From a virus: a DNA stretch of 5,032 nt. Made by a program: the position numbers and the translations under genes. Positions 1 through 5,032 of the stretch are shown in pieces (within the stretch, counting starts at the first letter, position 1; each line of letters opens with the position of its first letter). The stretch covers positions 1 through 5,032 of the IMG/VR virus record IMGVR_UViG_3300020030_000096. One strand, 5' to 3'. Under the pieces are notes generated by a model. It was given only the letters and a program-made list of their open reading frames with translations. It did no database searches and was not told the DNA's origin.

Positions 1-121
1 CCACGCGAGGACTGATTAGAAGAATCTCCAGTGTTGCGCCCGCGTCTGTACTTAGACTTCGGACTTAGCAGGCGCGGGCGCTTTGGTGTCCGGGTCGAAC
101 GGAGGAACGAAAGCATTTGCA
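1..121. repeat. Terminal redundancy (circular-genome assembly overlap), identical to 4912-5032
   Basis: Base-by-base comparison shows 1-121 equals 4912-5032 exactly (offset 4911). The junction falls inside a hairpin loop and next to the 3' end of a gene, which fits a linearised circle rather than a biological terminal repeat. Confidence 0.95.
36..81. other. GC-clamp hairpin spanning the stop codon of the VP5-like gene (second copy at 4947-4992)
   Basis: Arm 36-44 GCGCCCGCG pairs perfectly with 73-81 CGCGGGCGC (9 G:C pairs). The stem extends 46-48/69-71 after one T/G mismatch. The 20-nt loop (49-68) reads t-ACTTAG-ACTTCGG-ACTTAG, three tandem ACTT units. Confidence 0.7.
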
Positions 122-345
122 GCAGCAACCTGCGTCGGAGCACAAGCTACAAGCTCGCCAGTCTCGTCAGAATACTGACCAATTTCGTAAAGGAAAAAAT
201 CGTCTGGATGCTGACCAACGGTAGTACGACTATCGCGAACGAGATCAGAAAAAGACCGAGATGCATCAGCAGCAGAACGACTGAAAAACGGCGTATTAAA
301 AACCTGAAGTTTAGAGTCGAAAACGGAAAAAACTTTAAGGATCAT
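52..345 (-). CDS. VP5: VP5-like small nonstructural protein of gokushoviruses (97 aa)
   Basis: Complete ORF with ATG at 345-343 and TAA at 54-52. The N-terminus MILKVFSVFDSKLQVFNTPFF...RSFSDLV...HPDDFFLYEIGQYSDETGEL matches my recollection of the conserved pattern (M..K.F.V.D.K...F..PFF...A.R.F......HP.DF.L.EIG.fDd.tG) of the small protein found next to VP4 in gokushoviruses. Its ATG overlaps the VP4 stop as ATGA. Codons are rich in third-position T, like the other genes. Confidence 0.75.
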   Translation of the reverse strand: MILKVFSVFDSKLQVFNTPFFSRSAADASRSFSDLVRDSRTTVGQHPDDFFLYEIGQYSDETGELVACAPTQVAAANAFVPPFDPDTKAPAPAKSEV

Positions 346-1259
346 GATTGATTCTCTTCCATAACGCGTCTGAGTTTAGCAGCTTTCAATTCTTGGACGC
401 GTTCACGAACTGAAAGACGATGAGGTGAAGCTTCACCAGTATCTTCAAAATCGCGACCTCGCTTTTCGCGCAATCGCTTAATCTCTTCATAGCGAACAAT
501 ATCAGAACGCTCCAACAACTTATCAAAATAAGCTGGAGGGTTCATCATAATCTTTTCACTAAGAATAAGTCGATCATTAGTATAAATATCAGTCATGTAC
601 TTTTCACAGAAGTCATGACCAATGCCAGGTTTGAGCGAGCAATGACAAAATTCAGCAACTTTACCGTCATAATGCTCAAGCTTCAAAGGACCTGTAATTT
701 TCTTCGTAACATAACGAGCGACGTAAGCGGCAGTCTCAAAGTTGACTGAACCAATCGAACTAAAACCATACGGCCAAAGCTTCTCAAGCGTTGCACTGCG
801 ATAAAGGTTATTGCCTCGACGAATAGACCAGAGCTTTTTATCAACAAAAGTCACGCCAAAAATAACGGCGTGATAATGAGGACGTCCAAGCTTATCGCCA
901 TATTCACCGCACATGAAAAAACGAAGCTGTTGACCAAAACGACTCATGAAGTACTTACGCATACGCTTCATGAACAACTGAAAGTGCTCGTAATGAAGTG
1001 AAGCATCGGCAGGCAAATGAGCATCATCATAAGTCAGCGTAAGAAACATGTTGTTCTTATGTGACTTAGCTTCAACAACACATCGAGCAGCCCATTCACG
1101 AGACTTAGAAAGTCGACAGCCAATACATTGACCGCAAGGAATTTTGAACTCAGAAAAAGGAATCGCTTTGGAAGAATCAAAAGTTATGGCATTGCGATTG
1201 CCATTCTTGGTCTTTGTACCAGCCAGACGATAGGCAGTTATTGGGTGATAGCAAGGCAT
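342..1259 (-). CDS. VP4: VP4 replication initiation protein (HUH rolling-circle endonuclease), 305 aa from ATG 1259; ORF open to an in-frame TTG at 1271 (309 aa)
   Basis: Rolling-circle Rep motifs are present in order: motif I FLTLTY, motif II (HUH) RPHYHAVIFG, motif III with catalytic Tyr AAYVARYVTKK. The Cys cluster PCGQCIGCRLSKSREWAARC is typical of microvirus VP4. The N-terminus MPCYHPITAYR is typical of the family, so ATG 1259 is preferred over TTG 1271. No Shine-Dalgarno precedes either start. Confidence 0.93.
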   Translation of the reverse strand: MPCYHPITAYRLAGTKTKNGNRNAITFDSSKAIPFSEFKIPCGQCIGCRLSKSREWAARCVVEAKSHKNNMFLTLTYDDAHLPADASLHYEHFQLFMKRMRKYFMSRFGQQLRFFMCGEYGDKLGRPHYHAVIFGVTFVDKKLWSIRRGNNLYRSATLEKLWPYGFSSIGSVNFETAAYVARYVTKKITGPLKLEHYDGKVAEFCHCSLKPGIGHDFCEKYMTDIYTNDRLILSEKIMMNPPAYFDKLLERSDIVRYEEIKRLREKRGRDFEDTGEASPHRLSVRERVQELKAAKLRRVMEENQS

Positions 1260-1468
1260 TTTTCGAGACAAGCCATATGCAATTCACGAAGAATCGTTTC
1301 ACGAGTAGAGCGAGAACGAACTTGGAAAGAAATTAAAGAAGTCCAAGGACGGTCGCGATAAAGCGTCCAAGTCACGAGCTTGCGACGACCAACATAAGTC
1401 GATTCGCCAGGCACAAGCCAACAGACACCAAAATCCTTAAGGGTAAGACGAAAAGCCGCGGAAGCCAT
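1238..1468 (-). CDS. Orphan hypothetical protein, 76 aa from ATG 1468 (ORF track starts it at TTG 1477, 79 aa)
   Basis: Sense-strand ORF filling the VP8-VP4 gap. About 40 of 76 codons end in T and Arg is mostly CGT, the same bias as VP1, VP8 and the other clear genes. It ends 22 nt inside VP4, which lacks its own SD, so it may couple VP4 translation. It has no SD of its own and I recognise no motif. Confidence 0.5.
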   Translation of the reverse strand: MASAAFRLTLKDFGVCWLVPGESTYVGRRKLVTWTLYRDRPWTSLISFQVRSRSTRETILRELHMACLEKCLAITQ

Positions 1469-1545
1469 AGATAGCAAAGTTTCAAATGAAGAAGATGTTC
1501 AAAATGATAACTATGACGACCGCGACAGGTAAATAGTGTTAACGC

Positions 1546-1668
1546 TTAAATGCGGAAACCGCCACGCATTGGCGTAGCACGAGTATTCAAAGTCTTCGTA
1601 CGAGAAGCACCTTTACGGAAAATACGCTTAGATGCCTTACGAGAAAGCTTATGACGACGACGAAACAT
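1546..1668 (-). CDS. VP8: Small basic DNA-binding/packaging protein (phiX174 J analogue, gokushovirus VP8/ORF8-like), 40 aa
   Basis: Hand translation gives MFRRRHKLSRKASKRIFRKGASRTKTLNTRATPMRGGFRI, with 14 of 40 residues Arg/Lys. The C-terminal PMRGGxR motif is characteristic of these proteins. SD GAGG at 1677-1674 sits 5 nt before ATG 1668-1666; stop TAA at 1548-1546. It is too short to appear in the supplied ORF track. Confidence 0.85.
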   Translation of the reverse strand: MFRRRHKLSRKASKRIFRKGASRTKTLNTRATPMRGGFRI

Positions 1669-1675
1669 ATAAACC

Positions 1676-1774
1676 TCACTTTTTAAAAAGTTTCTTAACG
1701 GCTTTAAAGGCCTTCCAAATCGCAGAACCAGAGTTCAGCAAAACACTAACAAACTTTAAAATCGCATCTATCAT
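1676..1774 (-). CDS. Predicted 32-aa cationic amphipathic micro-protein MIDAILKFVSVLLNSGSAIWKAFKAVKKLFKK
   Basis: ATG 1774-1772 overlaps the VP2 stop TGA 1773-1771 (ATGA coupling). Its own stop TGA 1678-1676 is embedded in the SD of VP8. It fills an otherwise unexplained 102-nt gap in a compact genome, and 14 of 32 codons end in T. It corresponds to the C-terminal half of track ORF 1676..1867. There is no separate SD. Confidence 0.45.
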   Translation of the reverse strand: MIDAILKFVSVLLNSGSAIWKAFKAVKKLFKK

Positions 1775-2391
1775 TTCGCAAGACGAGCAGCACCAACAGC
1801 GGAATTTACAACCGGAGCAGATGTGCCGAACGGATTCAAAAGTTGCATCCATTGGCCGAAAGACCAAGCTCCAGAGTGATTTTTCATATAGTCAAAGGCC
1901 ATTTTGTGTCTTTCAGTCTCTAGCGCAGAATTAGCAGTCTTAAGCTTCTCTTGAGCCCATTGCTCTTTAAGAATGTAATTAGTCAACGCTTGAGTAGCAA
2001 CGGCTTCAAGAGAACGATTAGCTTCAAAATCAACACGCTTTTCCTCAGTTTTATTCAAAGCAGTCTGACTTTCAGCCTGACGAGCTGAAGAAACGCTCTG
2101 CTGTGTCTGAGCTTTGATCAAATCTTCCTGAGACCTGCCAAGAGAGGCTTCAACAGCCTTGGCAGACGCACCAGAGACATCAGGAGCCTCGATGATAGGA
2201 GCATTACCAGGAGCACCAGAACCTCCAGTTGCAGTCAGTATTGGATTAAGACCTGCTTTACGCAAGTCATCAACTTCCCACAGATGTCGATTCTGCATCA
2301 CCTCTTTCTGATGCTTCCAATTGAAATAAGAAGCAAGAGCAGAAGTACCAATACTAGCAGCACCACCAGCTAAAGCAGTCCAAGCTGACAT
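1771..2391 (-). CDS. VP2: VP2 minor capsid / DNA pilot protein (206 aa)
   Basis: It sits immediately downstream of VP1. It has a Gly/Ala/Ser-rich N-terminus and the conserved VP2 core ...QNRHLWEVDDLRKAGLNPILTATGG... (the xxDLkaAGLNPxL signature of gokushovirus VP2). AGGA lies about 9 nt upstream of ATG 2391-2389. Confidence 0.85.
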   Translation of the reverse strand: MSAWTALAGGAASIGTSALASYFNWKHQKEVMQNRHLWEVDDLRKAGLNPILTATGGSGAPGNAPIIEAPDVSGASAKAVEASLGRSQEDLIKAQTQQSVSSARQAESQTALNKTEEKRVDFEANRSLEAVATQALTNYILKEQWAQEKLKTANSALETERHKMAFDYMKNHSGAWSFGQWMQLLNPFGTSAPVVNSAVGAARLAK

Positions 2392-2392
2392 A

Positions 2393-2455
2393 TCACTGTC
2401 CTAAAGCAAAGATAACGATCACACCTACAGCAGCAAGCCAAAAAACTAAAGCCAT
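2393..2455 (-). CDS. Predicted 20-aa hydrophobic (single transmembrane span) micro-protein MALVFWLAAVGVIVIFALGQ
   Basis: Hand translation of the VP1-VP2 spacer. SD GAGG (2464-2461) sits 5 nt before ATG 2455-2453, as good as or better than the sites of the other genes. Stop TGA 2395-2393 lies 1 nt before the VP2 ATG, and the VP2 SD sits inside its last codons. 10 of 20 codons end in T. There are no charged residues, and 17 consecutive apolar residues (A2-L18) could approximately span a membrane. Confidence 0.55.
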   Translation of the reverse strand: MALVFWLAAVGVIVIFALGQ

Positions 2456-2465
2456 ATCAACCTCA

Positions 2466-4097
2466 TTAAAAATGATCAACCAGACCAGGAACAGAATAGA
2501 CAGGCATCGGACGAGCACACTTCAAACGAATATACGAGTCAAACAAAAATTGCGGTTCACTAGTCACAGCAACAACTCGCTCGACAGGCGGATTATCTTG
2601 AATAAATTGAGACGAAAGAGCTGGCAAAGAGCTGAACTTCTGCGCTAAATGCCAACTATCCAACGGCTGAGGATCAGTTGAGCGGAATTTCCCTGTAATC
2701 TGGCCGGGATAATAACGATACTCAGCGTAGCGTTCTTGATAACCAAAAACCTTGTCATCATCAACAGTGCCTTGCGCATAAATTTCTTTATTGAGAACAG
2801 CTTGTTCGCCAAGGTGCGCAAGCACAGGCCAATAAAAATCAAAGCGACCTTGGCGTGACCACATGCGATTCAGACCTTGCTGGTAAGTCAGGTCAGCACG
2901 AACATTCACAAAACCAAAGACATAGCCGTGCTCGACAAAAGACTTCGAGAAACCATGGAACGAATCTGAGACCACACCAAAAGCAGCCAGATTTCCTTGC
3001 GGAGTCGTCTCATTAGTAGCTGAGGTCTGCTGAACAGGGTTGATCGAAATACGAGCAGATGAACCGCCAAGGTATTCAGGACGTTGCAAACGAGCATCAG
3101 GCGAGATCACGCCGAAGTGAGAGCGAAGAATTTCTGTGTATCGCGTACCGCCGCGAGCGTCGCGTTCATAAAGCTTTTGGATCTGGAAAGCTTGACGGAG
3201 ATCATTAATTGAGATCGGCGTAGCTGTTGAAAGGTCAGCAGTACCAGAAAAGCTAAGGGCAGGATCTTTCCAGCGCAAAATACCACGCGCGGCTTGATGC
3301 TGAGAGCCAGCATCAAATTTAGCCTTCACGGTGTCAAAACCAAAATTGTTAGTATCGCCAGTAAGCGACAAAGAGCCAATGGAAATTTGATTCGTTTGAA
3401 TCAGATCAGTCGAAAAATCAAAAAGAGGAGAACCATTGCCAACAACGCTACCTGAAAGCGAAGCACTACCACCAATTGAAATTTCTACACCTGGGCCTTT
3501 TTGCGGCCACGGCAAACAAGACGTGAAATAGTCATGACGCTTACCACGACGAACCAAACTGTAATCAGAAAAATTATCTGGACCATCACCGGTCGGAACT
3601 TTCAAAGATTCTTGAAGATTCTCATCTCTAAACCATTCATTGAAAATGAGATTGTAAGCGCGGAAAGGAAGCGCATTTACTTTCAAAGCTTTATTGACAT
3701 TCGTCGGAAGACCGAAATAATCCCAAAGCGTCTGATTCTGAACATTCGTACCAGAGACCGTCGGAATTAAAAAGTCTGTTGAATCAGTTGGATTCTTCTG
3801 CTCACCATTGAACTTCTGCCAATTGTCCCAAACAAGCCGATTGGGAACAAAGAAGAAGAAAGTCTCCAGATAAAGATTGTCCATAAAGGGAACAATCGGA
3901 GTAGCTAAACGAGCAAACAAAGTAGCTGTCAGCTTAAAAGAATCTCCTGGAAGAACTTCATCGACATAAAAAGGTACAAGATAACCAGAATTAAAAGTTG
4001 TCTTATAACCATGAGAGCGGTCAAAAACCGATCGAGGAATCTGAGTCGAAGGAATCTGAGAGAACAGATGCTGAGTAGAACGATTAACAGATGACAT
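2466..4097 (-). CDS. VP1: VP1 major capsid protein (543 aa), Microviridae F-protein family, gokushovirus type
   Basis: The size and N-terminus (...HLFSQIPSTQIPRSVFDRSHGYKTTFNSGYLVPFYVDEVLPGDSF...) match the conserved gokushovirus VP1 opening (RS.FD.S...KTTF..G.L.P....EVLPGD.F). An in-frame TAG immediately precedes ATG 4097-4095. Third-position T bias is strong. Confidence 0.95.
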   Translation of the reverse strand: MSSVNRSTQHLFSQIPSTQIPRSVFDRSHGYKTTFNSGYLVPFYVDEVLPGDSFKLTATLFARLATPIVPFMDNLYLETFFFFVPNRLVWDNWQKFNGEQKNPTDSTDFLIPTVSGTNVQNQTLWDYFGLPTNVNKALKVNALPFRAYNLIFNEWFRDENLQESLKVPTGDGPDNFSDYSLVRRGKRHDYFTSCLPWPQKGPGVEISIGGSASLSGSVVGNGSPLFDFSTDLIQTNQISIGSLSLTGDTNNFGFDTVKAKFDAGSQHQAARGILRWKDPALSFSGTADLSTATPISINDLRQAFQIQKLYERDARGGTRYTEILRSHFGVISPDARLQRPEYLGGSSARISINPVQQTSATNETTPQGNLAAFGVVSDSFHGFSKSFVEHGYVFGFVNVRADLTYQQGLNRMWSRQGRFDFYWPVLAHLGEQAVLNKEIYAQGTVDDDKVFGYQERYAEYRYYPGQITGKFRSTDPQPLDSWHLAQKFSSLPALSSQFIQDNPPVERVVAVTSEPQFLFDSYIRLKCARPMPVYSVPGLVDHF

Positions 4098-4107
4098 CTA
4101 AAAATCC

Positions 4108-4118
4108 ATATATATATA
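4108..4118. repeat. (AT)n microsatellite-like tract atatatatata between the upstream hairpin/T-run and the VP1 start
   Basis: Read directly from the sequence. It lies 11 nt upstream of the VP1 ATG on the sense strand. Confidence 0.8.
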
Positions 4119-4124
4119 GATAAC

Positions 4125-4164
4125 AAAAAAGGCGGCTAAGTCCAAAAGCCTCGACTCAGCCGCC
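4125..4164 (-). terminator. Intrinsic-terminator-like hairpin plus T6, 28 nt upstream of the VP1 start
   Basis: Arms 4131-4142 and 4153-4164 form 11 Watson-Crick pairs. The single A/C mismatch on the + strand becomes a G.U wobble in minus-sense RNA, giving a continuous 12-bp stem only in the sense transcript. The loop is 10 nt. Sense-strand TTTTTT (4130-4125) follows; no T-run follows on the + strand. Confidence 0.6.
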
Positions 4165-4216
4165 TTACGGATCAAAAACCCAAGACTCCGGAAAGCTTTA
4201 TCACCGTACAACGAAG

Positions 4217-4244
4217 CATATACCACAAAGCAAAGAGAAAGCAA
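4217..4244 (-). promoter_or_regulatory. Weak candidate sigma70-type promoter (sense strand): -35 TTGCTT (4244-4239), 16-nt spacer, extended -10 TGgTATATG (4225-4217)
   Basis: By-eye match only: -35 is 3/6 and -10 is 4/6, plus a TGn extension. The host is unknown. Confidence 0.2.
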
Positions 4245-4256
4245 ACATCGAAGCAA
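4228..4256. repeat. Three helically phased copies of AAGCAA (sense TTGCTT) at 4228, 4239 and 4251
   Basis: The first two copies extend to AAAGCAAA (4227-4234 and 4238-4245). Spacing is 11 and 12 nt, about one helical turn. The array ends 10 nt from the downstream direct repeat of the candidate origin. Confidence 0.6.
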
Positions 4257-4265
4257 TGCGTTAAA

Positions 4266-4282
4266 TACCCGCGCGCAGATCG
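4266..4282. repeat. Direct repeat copy 1 (tacccgCgcgcaGatcg) flanking the long hairpin
   Basis: 15 of 17 positions are identical to 4332-4348. Both differences are transitions. Both copies are followed by GAG (copy 2 after a 2-nt insertion). Confidence 0.85.
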
Positions 4283-4288
4283 GAGTGT

Positions 4289-4329
4289 CACCGGAACCAG
4301 TTACATCAAGTAAGTAACTGGTTCCGGTG
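4289..4329 (-). other. Perfect 16-bp stem / 9-nt loop hairpin; candidate viral-strand (rolling-circle) origin
   Basis: Arm 4289-4304 caccggaaccagttac is the exact reverse complement of 4314-4329. The loop on the sense strand reads TTACTTGAT, which contains ACTTGAT, the heptamer spanning the gpA cleavage site in the phiX174 origin (CAACTTG/ATATTAATAAC). Confidence 0.55.
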
Positions 4330-4331
4330 TG

Positions 4332-4348
4332 TACCCGTGCGCAAATCG
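4332..4348. repeat. Direct repeat copy 2 (tacccgTgcgcaAatcg) flanking the long hairpin
   Basis: See copy 1. The offset between copies is 66 nt. Confidence 0.85.
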
Positions 4349-4359
4349 TTGAGATATCT

Positions 4360-4389
4360 AAAAAAAAAGATCGCCGCAAACGGGCGATC
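4360..4389 (-). terminator. Rho-independent terminator downstream of VP3
   Basis: GC-rich stem GATCGCC (4369-4375) pairs with GGCGATC (4383-4389), with a possible eighth pair, and a short loop. On the sense strand it is followed immediately by nine T (4368-4360). Confidence 0.75.
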
Positions 4390-4401
4390 GAAAGGATTTT
4401 G

Positions 4402-4422
4402 AAGGGATGGAAACCATCCCTT
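4402..4422. other. Perfect 9-bp / 3-nt-loop hairpin just after the VP3 stop
   Basis: AAGGGATGG aaa CCATCCCTT. No T-run follows on either strand. Confidence 0.7.
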
Positions 4423-4439
4423 ATATGAGTTATTAGTAA

Positions 4440-4883
4440 TTACCCGTTGTTGTCAGAAGAAGACGGTTTAACATCATCAGCGGACGCTGCAGAAGCAGTA
4501 GGCTCAGGAGTCTTAGCTTCCTCAGGAGCGACAAAACCAAGCTCTTCAAGCTTAGATTTTTGCACAGGATCATTAAGCGCGTGAAGGAATTCAGAAGGTG
4601 AGTTATTAAACGAAGCACGAACATGAGAAGGAAGGCTTTCAAAGTATTCAGTTGCACGAGCAACAGCATTCTGAGCAGTCTGAAAATCTGTGACATCAGA
4701 AAAGTCACCAAACTGAATTGGGCGCTTCGGTGAAAAAGGATCAGTCAAAAAACCGGTCTCAGCATACTTTTGCAAGATATTGTCGATCATGGTCTCATCT
4801 TTAAAGTGCTGCTGAGTCATCGACGGTTCAGTAAAGACAATGCCTTCAGCGGTAGCGTTTGTGTGATTAATTTTGAACTTCAT
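4440..4883 (-). CDS. VP3: VP3 internal scaffolding protein (147 aa)
   Basis: From ATG 4883-4881, preceded by GGAG (SD) with a 5-nt spacer. The sequence ...TQQHFKDETMIDNILQKYAETG...FGDFSDVTDFQTAQNAV..A.EYFESLPSHVRASFNNSPSEFL... matches the chlamydiaphage/gokushovirus VP3 scaffold pattern (Q.FKDE.DIN.I..K....G; FGDF...D...A; F..LP...R..F.N.P..FL). The 48-codon upstream extension in the ORF track crosses a terminator hairpin and the circular junction and is not credible. Confidence 0.88.
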   Translation of the reverse strand: MKFKINHTNATAEGIVFTEPSMTQQHFKDETMIDNILQKYAETGFLTDPFSPKRPIQFGDFSDVTDFQTAQNAVARATEYFESLPSHVRASFNNSPSEFLHALNDPVQKSKLEELGFVAPEEAKTPEPTASAASADDVKPSSSDNNG

Positions 4884-4896
4884 ATAAGCTCCATAT

Positions 4897-4924
4897 AAAA
4901 AAGTCCTCGCACCACGCGAGGACT
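4897..4924 (-). terminator. Rho-independent terminator after the VP5-like gene, abutting the VP3 ribosome-binding site (distal arm duplicated at 5-13)
   Basis: AGTCCTCGC (4902-4910) pairs perfectly with GCGAGGACT (4916-4924), with the 5-nt loop accac. The sense strand continues ...GGACTTTTTTATATGGAGCTTATATG, so the T-run runs straight into the VP3 SD and ATG. Confidence 0.7.
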
Positions 4925-5032
4925 GATTAGAAGAATCTCCAGTGTTGCGCCCGCGTCTGTACTTAGACTTCGGACTTAGCAGGCGCGGGCGCTTTGGTGT
5001 CCGGGTCGAACGGAGGAACGAAAGCATTTGCA
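4912..5032. repeat. Second copy of the terminal redundancy (identical to 1-121); includes a duplicate of the last 23 codons of the VP5-like gene (4963-5032) and of the GC-clamp hairpin (4947-4992)
   Basis: Exact identity with 1-121. Confidence 0.95.

Follow-up and report, generated by a model that had tools for sequence, protein, structure and literature searches.

Gokushoviruses are among the most abundant single-stranded DNA (ssDNA) phages of gut and environmental viromes, and we found no mapped or proposed gokushovirus replication origin in the searchable literature. The locus described here raises the question of where rolling-circle synthesis of their viral strand begins. It lies in IMG/VR record IMGVR_UViG_3300020030_000096, of which positions 1 to 5,032 were analysed (the window). 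Bases 1-121 recur at 4912-5032, and the window is therefore a circular genome of 4,911 nucleotides (nt) with an overlap. It is a human-gut gokushovirus genome in which every gene (VP1, VP2, VP4/Rep, VP5 and VP3) has the minus strand as its coding strand. The element in question is a hairpin at 4289-4329 followed on the minus strand by a TGACAC box at 4290-4285, within the 342-nt gap between VP3 and VP1 (4098-4439). We propose that the hairpin and box together form the viral-strand rolling-circle origin and that the element has the same role across the Gokushovirinae, a reading to which we assign a probability of about 0.78, limited by the fact that all of the evidence is comparative.

The two 16-nt arms of the hairpin (Table 1) are 100% complementary and lie 9 nt apart, and theirs is the only perfect inverted repeat of such size in the window, as an earlier note on this stretch had described. 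By our own arithmetic 4.9 kb would contain about 2e-5 perfect stems of 16 bp with loops of 3-20 nt by chance (4911 x 18 / 4^16). The loop carries the heptamer ACTTGAT at 4305-4311 on the minus strand, its single occurrence in the whole window. The earlier note had recognised this as the sequence spanning the cleavage site of phiX174, cut between G and A, and the phiX174 record indeed reads CAACTTG/ATATTAATAACACTATAGACCAC with its rep_origin at A4306 of that genome (a slash outside brackets marks the cut). Its argument that the heptamer would rarely occur there by chance holds for the loop placement but not for presence alone: since a genome would be expected to contain about 0.92 copies over its two strands, finding the heptamer somewhere is unremarkable and its position in the loop is what is informative. 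By analogy with phiX174 the Rep nick is predicted between G4307 and A4306 (ACTTG/AT), after the seventh loop base. The earlier note had placed it at the same step, correctly relative to the phiX174 cut, and signed positions below are counted from it.

Six GenBank genomes are 81-85% identical to the window overall, and across them the first ~170 nt of the gap, hairpin included, are almost invariant. The loop reads T(T/G)ACTTGAT in these relatives, and in two of the six a C-G pair of the stem is replaced by A-T, a compensatory change. To this we added three wider samples chosen by Rep protein similarity only and blind to the hairpin. The Rep alignment used was headed by a divergent sequence, single-query scans with the Chp2 and phiMH2K Reps having given 2-3 loci each. 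Set A comprised 22 viral contigs with Reps 44-50% identical to that of the window. In 20 of them CTACTTGAT(G/A)T lies in the loop of a hairpin on the coding strand, and this hairpin is often stronger than any other perfect one of the genome; the remaining two are a contig with CTCTTGAT and an incomplete contig. Set B comprised 79 contigs from many environments with Reps 31-73% identical to a phiMH2K-like Rep, and a pattern consisting of a stem of at least 7 bp, NCTTG(A/T)T in the loop and T(G/C)AC downstream was found in 58 of these 79 real genomes compared with 0 of 1,580 shuffled ones. Set C comprised 50 loci from bacterial and archaeal species genomes, including true prophages of Desulfovibrionaceae, Sutterella, Intestinirhabdus, Oscillibacter and other Clostridia, and 47 of the loci contain the element. 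The earlier note had looked to related gokushoviruses for a conserved loop motif and a covarying stem, and this expectation agrees with what the aligned relatives and the Rep-selected sets contain.

A covariance model built from 64 elements matches at E<1e-3 in 92 of 100 sources (viral contigs), with one match per genome except in contigs with a terminal repeat, and it also picked up a loop variant, ACTAGAT, that the pattern had missed. Most genomes without a match to the model contain diverged versions. Chp1 has GGGCTATAT-cctCTTGgct-ATATAGCCC followed by GAGCGACAC, between VP3 and ORF8, while in two further genomes (L216 and L218) AGGTGACCAC follows the loop ctaGCTTGtcct. Of the cultured phages, Chp2 combines the loop TCTACTTGAT with a stem of 14 bp, and SpV4 and phiMH2K have ACTTGTT in the loop. 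The element of an E. coli prophage reads CCTGGCACAGT-gccCTACTTGATGTa-ACTGTGCCAGG-TGACACC and lies between the scaffold and capsid genes (E=3.6e-14).

Covariation was measured on an alignment of 96 distinct elements made with the covariance model, as MAFFT placed some of the 5′ arms out of register. An alignment of this kind leans towards the modelled structure, and a control with slid partners and independent counts of perfect stems both agree with it. All 12 modelled pairs show changes on both sides, double-change cells number 247 compared with 88 +/- 9.5 in shuffles, and none of five covariation measures was reached by any of 500 shuffles. Paired cells make up 85%, compared with 29-38% when the partners are slid by 1-3 columns. 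Independent counts of perfect stems in 130 elements gave lengths of 6-16 bp and dozens of lower-stem sequences unrelated to one another. Sequence conservation is seen in the loop and in the upper stem (CAGTTAC/GTAACTG): CAGTTAC of the 5′ arm is kept subfamily-wide, and GTAACTG at +3 to +9 of the 3′ arm is near-invariant even where its first bases are unpaired. The lower part of the stem covaries, and because it has no conserved sequence it is the pairing itself that is kept. These comparisons indicate that the hairpin is under strong subfamily-wide selection as a DNA structure. A palindromic duplex operator for a dimeric protein would not show such a lower stem, unconserved in sequence and conserved in pairing.

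A hairpin on the transcribed strand, with VP3 upstream of it and VP1 downstream, could also act in RNA as a terminator, an attenuator or an mRNA-stabilising structure, and microvirus intergenic hairpins often serve as terminators. The stem is followed, however, by ACACTCCGATC with no T-run, and the terminator scan flags only the site at 4389-4369, where GATCGCCC...GGCGATC precedes T9. With no Rfam match either, an intrinsic terminator and known RNA families were rejected. The loop is invariant, which terminators do not need, and the place of the element relative to the genes shifts with gene order. In 83 diverse genomes it lies outside long open frames in 78 and after VP3 in 73, the next recognisable gene being Rep in 58 and VP1 in 13, and what follows it depends on the order of the genes. 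In ~5% of genomes the element as a whole is inverted relative to the genes with loop and box retained, which fits a function at the level of DNA and not of RNA. We regard an RNA-level role as highly improbable. Elsewhere in the gap, TTGTGGTATATGCTT at ~4212-4226 (minus strand), ~115 nt upstream of the VP1 start, is invariant in 6/6 close relatives and resembles an extended -10 promoter element (TGnTATAnn), although a simple sigma-70 scan gave no call.

The second conserved part of the element is the TGACAC box, which was newly noticed in this analysis. We anchored 150 unique elements on the predicted nick, a sample gathered in part with a pattern covering -12 to +7 that leaves the box outside. 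Among them T, G, A and C occupy +17 to +20, each with a frequency of 97-99%, and C stands at +22. Positions +10 to +14 vary freely. Of 130 Rep-selected elements, 112 have the T of the box at +17 and the other 18 have it at +18; the stretch searched gave no further position. The same elements differ in the length of the perfect stem (6-16 bp) and of the spacer that separates the 5′ arm from the motif (0-8 nt). The box of the window shares the last two stem pairs with the hairpin, and elsewhere it sits just outside the stem. Its fixed distance from the nick implies a single reader in contact with the box as well as with the loop motif. That motif, NC(T)(T/A)G/(A/T)T, is likewise kept in the 130 elements, and the subfamily consensus at the predicted nick is (C/T)TAC(T)(T/A)G/(A/T)TG. 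Position -2 appears to accept T or A, and C-4, G-1 and T+2 are essentially fixed. ACTAGAT, with T to A at -2, occurs in eleven of the genomes (L234, L247, L249, L254, L257, L261, L264, L281, L217, L232 and L265). The elements of L234 and L259 are near-identical and differ essentially at this position only; Rep therefore evidently tolerates both bases. Literature searches on gokushovirus or Microviridae origins, hairpins and nick sites returned no prior description of the element, although a passing mention in the older genome papers of phiMH2K, Chp2 and SpV4 is possible, and searches with strings of its sequence returned unrelated primers only.

Rep (VP4) is presumed to be the protein that acts on the element. 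An alignment of the window Rep to protein A of phiX174 covers the HUH region (EYGDKLGRPHYHAVIF versus EYGTANGRLHFHAVHF, E=8e-8), and the two-tyrosine catalytic motif reads AAYVARYVTKK in the window and FYVAKYVNKK in phiX174. Along with this motif the protein contains FLTLT, the HUH motif RPHYHAV and an N-terminal cluster of four cysteines. A set of 13 diverse gokushovirus Reps shows no variation in FLTLT, RPHxH or YVARY. In the same 13 proteins the cysteines, which in the window are C7, C46, C49 and C52 (residues ~7-52), are also invariant, and together they may make up a zinc-binding module, potentially a reader of the duplex TGACAC box. A structure search found no solved structure of a Rep homologue.

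Initiation could then proceed as follows. In the supercoiled replicative form the inverted repeat would extrude or melt, leaving the loop TTACTTG/AT single-stranded on the strand to be packaged. Rep, positioned by the conserved sequence GTAACTG (+3 to +9) of the upper 3′ arm together with the TGACAC box, which lies 17 nt downstream, would cut between G4307 and A4306 by means of one tyrosine of YVARY and become linked to the 5′ A, and the 3′-OH of the G would prime synthesis by the host polymerase. After one round the regenerated origin would refold in the displaced strand, where the second tyrosine would cut and reseal, releasing a circular genome for packaging.

The element shares several features with the origin of phiX174 and its relatives (Bullavirinae). 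In both, ACTTGAT spans the known or predicted cut on the virion (coding) strand, the layout has two parts with GAC at +18 to +20, and the initiators are homologous proteins with HUH and YVA(K/R)YVxKK motifs. At the cut phiX174 reads CAACTTG/ATA and the window TTACTTG/ATG, with 7 contiguous identities of 10. The downstream block of phiX174 reads (A)GAC(CAC), and the two blocks agree at no more than about 4 of 8 positions. Two diverged gokushoviruses have GTGACCAC in place of the phiX174 sequence TAGACCAC. The phiX174 origin, in contrast to the covarying hairpin of gokushoviruses, has no hairpin at the nick site (best stem 1 bp). Its spacer is AT-rich, whereas +3 to +16 of the window is GTAACTGGTTCCGG, a G+C-containing 3′ hairpin arm. 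It lies inside gene A, whereas the window element occupies a non-coding gap, and the gokushovirus covariance model gives no match on phiX174. The earlier note had set the hairpin against the hairpin-less phiX174 origin. The absence of a hairpin there is real, but the GAC block at a shared offset makes the contrast less sharp than was claimed. The element looks like a phiX-type two-part origin whose spacer became one hairpin arm. A wider proposal would be that it is homologous to the 30-nt phiX174 origin over its whole length (nick motif, 17-nt ruler and GAC box) and is the universal origin of the Gokushovirinae, the ancestral microvirus origin having been a stem-loop, similar to those of CRESS-DNA viruses and rolling-circle plasmids, whose hairpin the phiX lineage lost when the origin entered gene A. 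We hold this only tentatively, at somewhat under an even chance.

A second point of comparison is provided by the stem-loop origins of CRESS-DNA viruses (circular, single-stranded and encoding a Rep), such as the geminivirus TAATATT/AC and the circovirus nonanucleotide, and of rolling-circle plasmids of the pT181 and pMV158 types. There too a hairpin shows a conserved loop to an HUH Rep encoded by the replicon itself (VP4, PF23343, in the window), and the stem covaries around a fixed loop. The geometry of the geminivirus nonanucleotide also recurs, the cut in the window being predicted after the seventh base of a 9-nt loop. CRESS and plasmid origins typically have iterated Rep-binding sites beside the stem. 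Gokushoviruses have flanking repeats only in the clade of the window, and have instead a universal single box at +17/+18 and an upper stem conserved in sequence. The window Rep belongs to the two-tyrosine phiX-like group and lacks the superfamily-3 helicase domain of CRESS Reps. In our reading the element is one that works like the phiX174 origin and is presented like a CRESS or plasmid stem-loop, and it fails defining features of both families, as it has no AT-rich spacer, is not inside Rep and has no general iterons.

The 17-nt direct repeats that bracket the hairpin (4266-4282 and 4332-4348) are near-identical in the window, differing by two transitions (C/T and G/A), just as the earlier note had observed. 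That note had likened the iteron-hairpin-iteron layout to origins of other HUH-Rep replicons, and comparison did not support it as the defining architecture. Across the six close relatives the upstream repeat is invariant and the downstream copy variable in its centre. Comparison of the two copies in 61 unique contexts from the clade of the window usually gives 12-13 identities over 17 positions. Of the downstream copy just the ends, CGAT and CGGGTA, are fixed in the clade, and a few members are without it. Among 92 diverse genomes the best flanking 17-mer match exceeded all shuffles in three, two of which are the window and a close relative. Flanks being no better than shuffled sequence in other clades, iterons were rejected as a general feature, and the repeats are a clade-specific accessory outside the conserved core. 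The repeat cores are palindromic (TGCGCA and GCGCGC), and in the DNA fold the repeats partly pair with one another, lengthening the stem.

GTGCGCA of the flanking repeats is reminiscent of the XerC arm of E. coli dif, and could speak for an attachment site of the XerCD/dif type, used as a duplex or as a folded single strand as in CTX-phi. Some gokushoviruses do integrate through dif-like motifs in non-coding regions (PMC7062461). Such motifs occur, however, in only a minority of gokushoviruses (PMC7062461), whereas the element is near-universal. It also lacks the 11-6-11 layout (two 11-bp arms and a 6-bp spacer, 28 bp), and the element of the E. coli prophage is internal, between scaffold and capsid genes, and not at a junction. 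We therefore rejected a dif/XerCD site, whose probability we consider close to negligible. In 185,579 species genomes we found no close Rep relative of the window's clade (best 46% identity), and no lysogen of that clade with a prophage-host junction within the hairpin or the 17-nt repeats. Double copies of the element at two loci had raised the possibility of integration at the hairpin, which was rejected as both loci are tandem prophages with one element copy per prophage unit. In Intestinirhabdus alba (L304, 4000-11000) two diverged phages (72-83% identical) have a spacing of 4,331-4,342 nt, and in an uncultured member of the Clostridia (L318, 6500-14500) an identical repeat recurs at a spacing of 5,173 nt.

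The hairpin could alternatively be a complementary-strand (single-strand) origin, a structure in virion DNA read by host primase, RNA polymerase or primosome, for which the phiX174 PriA site, the primase hairpins of G4 and plasmid single-strand origin (sso) elements are comparable signals. A stable ssDNA hairpin in a non-coding gap that is highly structured as DNA (z = -8.6) would suit this function, and single-strand origins are likewise strand-specific and present once per genome. In other microviruses, the reekeekee- and roodoodooviruses, conserved intergenic hairpins lie beside capsid or Rep genes; they show compensatory substitutions, and within one clade the loop is identical. The authors assigned no function and tentatively tied them to complementary-strand initiation (PMC9865509). 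For those hairpins, unlike the gokushovirus element, no nick-site motif or downstream box is described (PMC9865509). Phages with the element infect hosts of different phyla (Chlamydia, Spiroplasma, Bdellovibrio, Enterobacteria, Desulfovibrionaceae and Clostridia), and a loop and box sequence kept across them fits a phage-encoded reader better than host factors. Host priming signals differ even between phiX174 and G4. The loop is moreover the phiX174 nick heptamer, with a box at a fixed distance as in a Rep origin, and inverted cases would need a separate nick site to be inverted as well. Three further hairpins of the same gap, at 4402-4421, 4369-4389 and 4129-4166 on the minus strand, are available for priming, and one of these could be the complementary-strand origin. 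The first (GGGATGG/CCATCCC) is unchanged across the six relatives. The third has a 14-bp stem followed by T6, with arms that vary among relatives and pairing that is retained. We consider priming of the complementary strand an unlikely role for the element at 4289-4329.

The fixed spacing and the sequence conservation imply a reader encoded by the phage, though not necessarily Rep. The element could instead serve in packaging or encapsidation, or be bound by some other phage protein of the VP5/C-like or J/VP8-like kind, and not be nicked. The window encodes both VP5 and a candidate of the latter kind: the apparent 500-nt gap between VP2 and VP4 is coding, and an open reading frame (ORF) at 1546-1668 (minus strand) specifies a conserved Arg/Lys-rich protein of 40 amino acids (MFRRRHKLSRKASKRIFRKGASRTKTLNTRATPMRGGFRI) that is probably a J/VP8-like DNA-binding protein. 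A packaging site would leave the identity with the phiX174 cleavage heptamer unexplained. Fluit, Baas and Jansz reportedly found in 1985 that the 30-bp phiX174 origin is itself required for replication and packaging, and the packaging alternative thus largely merges into an origin; as a separate function we judge it very unlikely. A second short ORF, with the start ATGATAGAT, directly follows VP2 (~1674-1773, minus strand). Neither ORF is annotated in the GenBank relatives. As the VP2-VP4 gap carries these conserved small ORFs, the VP3-VP1 gap is the sole large non-coding stretch of the genome.

Table 1. Coordinates of the element, its flanking repeats and the annotated genes in the window
Feature	Position	Strand	Remarks
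Upstream direct repeat	4332..4348	-	TACCCGTGCGCAAATCG; virion sense CGATTTGCGCACGGGTA; near-invariant in the window's clade only
5′ arm	4314..4329	-	virion sense CACCGGAACCAGTTAC; perfect 16 bp
9-nt loop	4305..4313	-	minus (coding) strand reads TTACTTGAT
3′ arm	4289..4304	-	GTAACTGGTTCCGGTG; +3 to +18 from the predicted nick
TGACAC box	4285..4290	-	+17 to +22 from the predicted nick; candidate Rep binding site
Downstream direct repeat	4266..4282	-	TACCCGCGCGCAGATCG; virion sense CGATCTGCGCGCGGGTA
VP3, scaffold	ends at 4440	-	
VP1, major capsid protein	4097-2466	-	Pfam Phage_F, E=6e-193
VP2	2391-1771	-	
VP4, HUH rolling-circle Rep	342..1271	-	PF23343, E=3e-25; weak match to phiX GPA
VP5	345-52	-	

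A rolling-circle origin, as proposed in the earlier note, remains the best explanation, with a conserved hairpin, an element on the coding strand in ~95% of cases and a Rep with phiX-type motifs; the iteron architecture attached to that proposal has fallen away. Several points nevertheless weigh against it. Cleavage, 5′-end mapping and origin-dependent replication are the subject of no report that we found in the literature for any gokushovirus. Beyond the heptamer the likeness to the phiX174 origin is weak (14/30 positions by our count), and the GAC coincidence taken alone has a chance of ~1 in 20 to 1 in 64. Unlike its phiX174 counterpart, the element lies outside the Rep gene and lacks an AT-rich spacer. 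A complementary-strand origin or a packaging signal could also take the form of an ssDNA hairpin whose loop is conserved. Finally, ~5% of the elements are inverted relative to the Rep strand, which under this reading would, unless these contigs are misassembled, imply packaging of the antisense strand, to our knowledge unprecedented for Microviridae.

Inverted elements were observed in viral contigs (L225 ~4370-4438, L226 4109-4176, L227 1372-1438 and L233 2062-2100) and in loci of bacterial assemblies (L311 5202-5269, L314 1396-1464, L322 2480-2547, L324 3057-3125 and L330 1762-1827), with the loop motif and TGACAC box together on the strand opposite the Rep match. In L225-L227 and L233, the four to which VP1 placement by tblastn extends, VP1 is also on the Rep strand. 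Such cases may reflect misassembly at the palindrome.

An element of ~45-66 nt with a defined predicted cut site makes the question of the gokushovirus origin directly testable in E. coli. The element is present in E. coli gokushovirus prophages of the EC6098 type, for which a system of resurrection and transformation exists (PMC7062461), and it suggests a route to gokushovirus phagemids. For thousands of metagenomic genomes it offers an annotation landmark and a natural coordinate zero, and the covariance model could flag microvirus genomes and tell which strand is packaged. If the wider proposal of full-length homology is true, genomes in which the element is inverted (~5%) would be packaging antisense strands and be the first negative-sense microviruses. 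For the family as a whole, the element links the hairpin-less origin of phiX174 mechanistically with the stem-loop origins of other HUH replicons.

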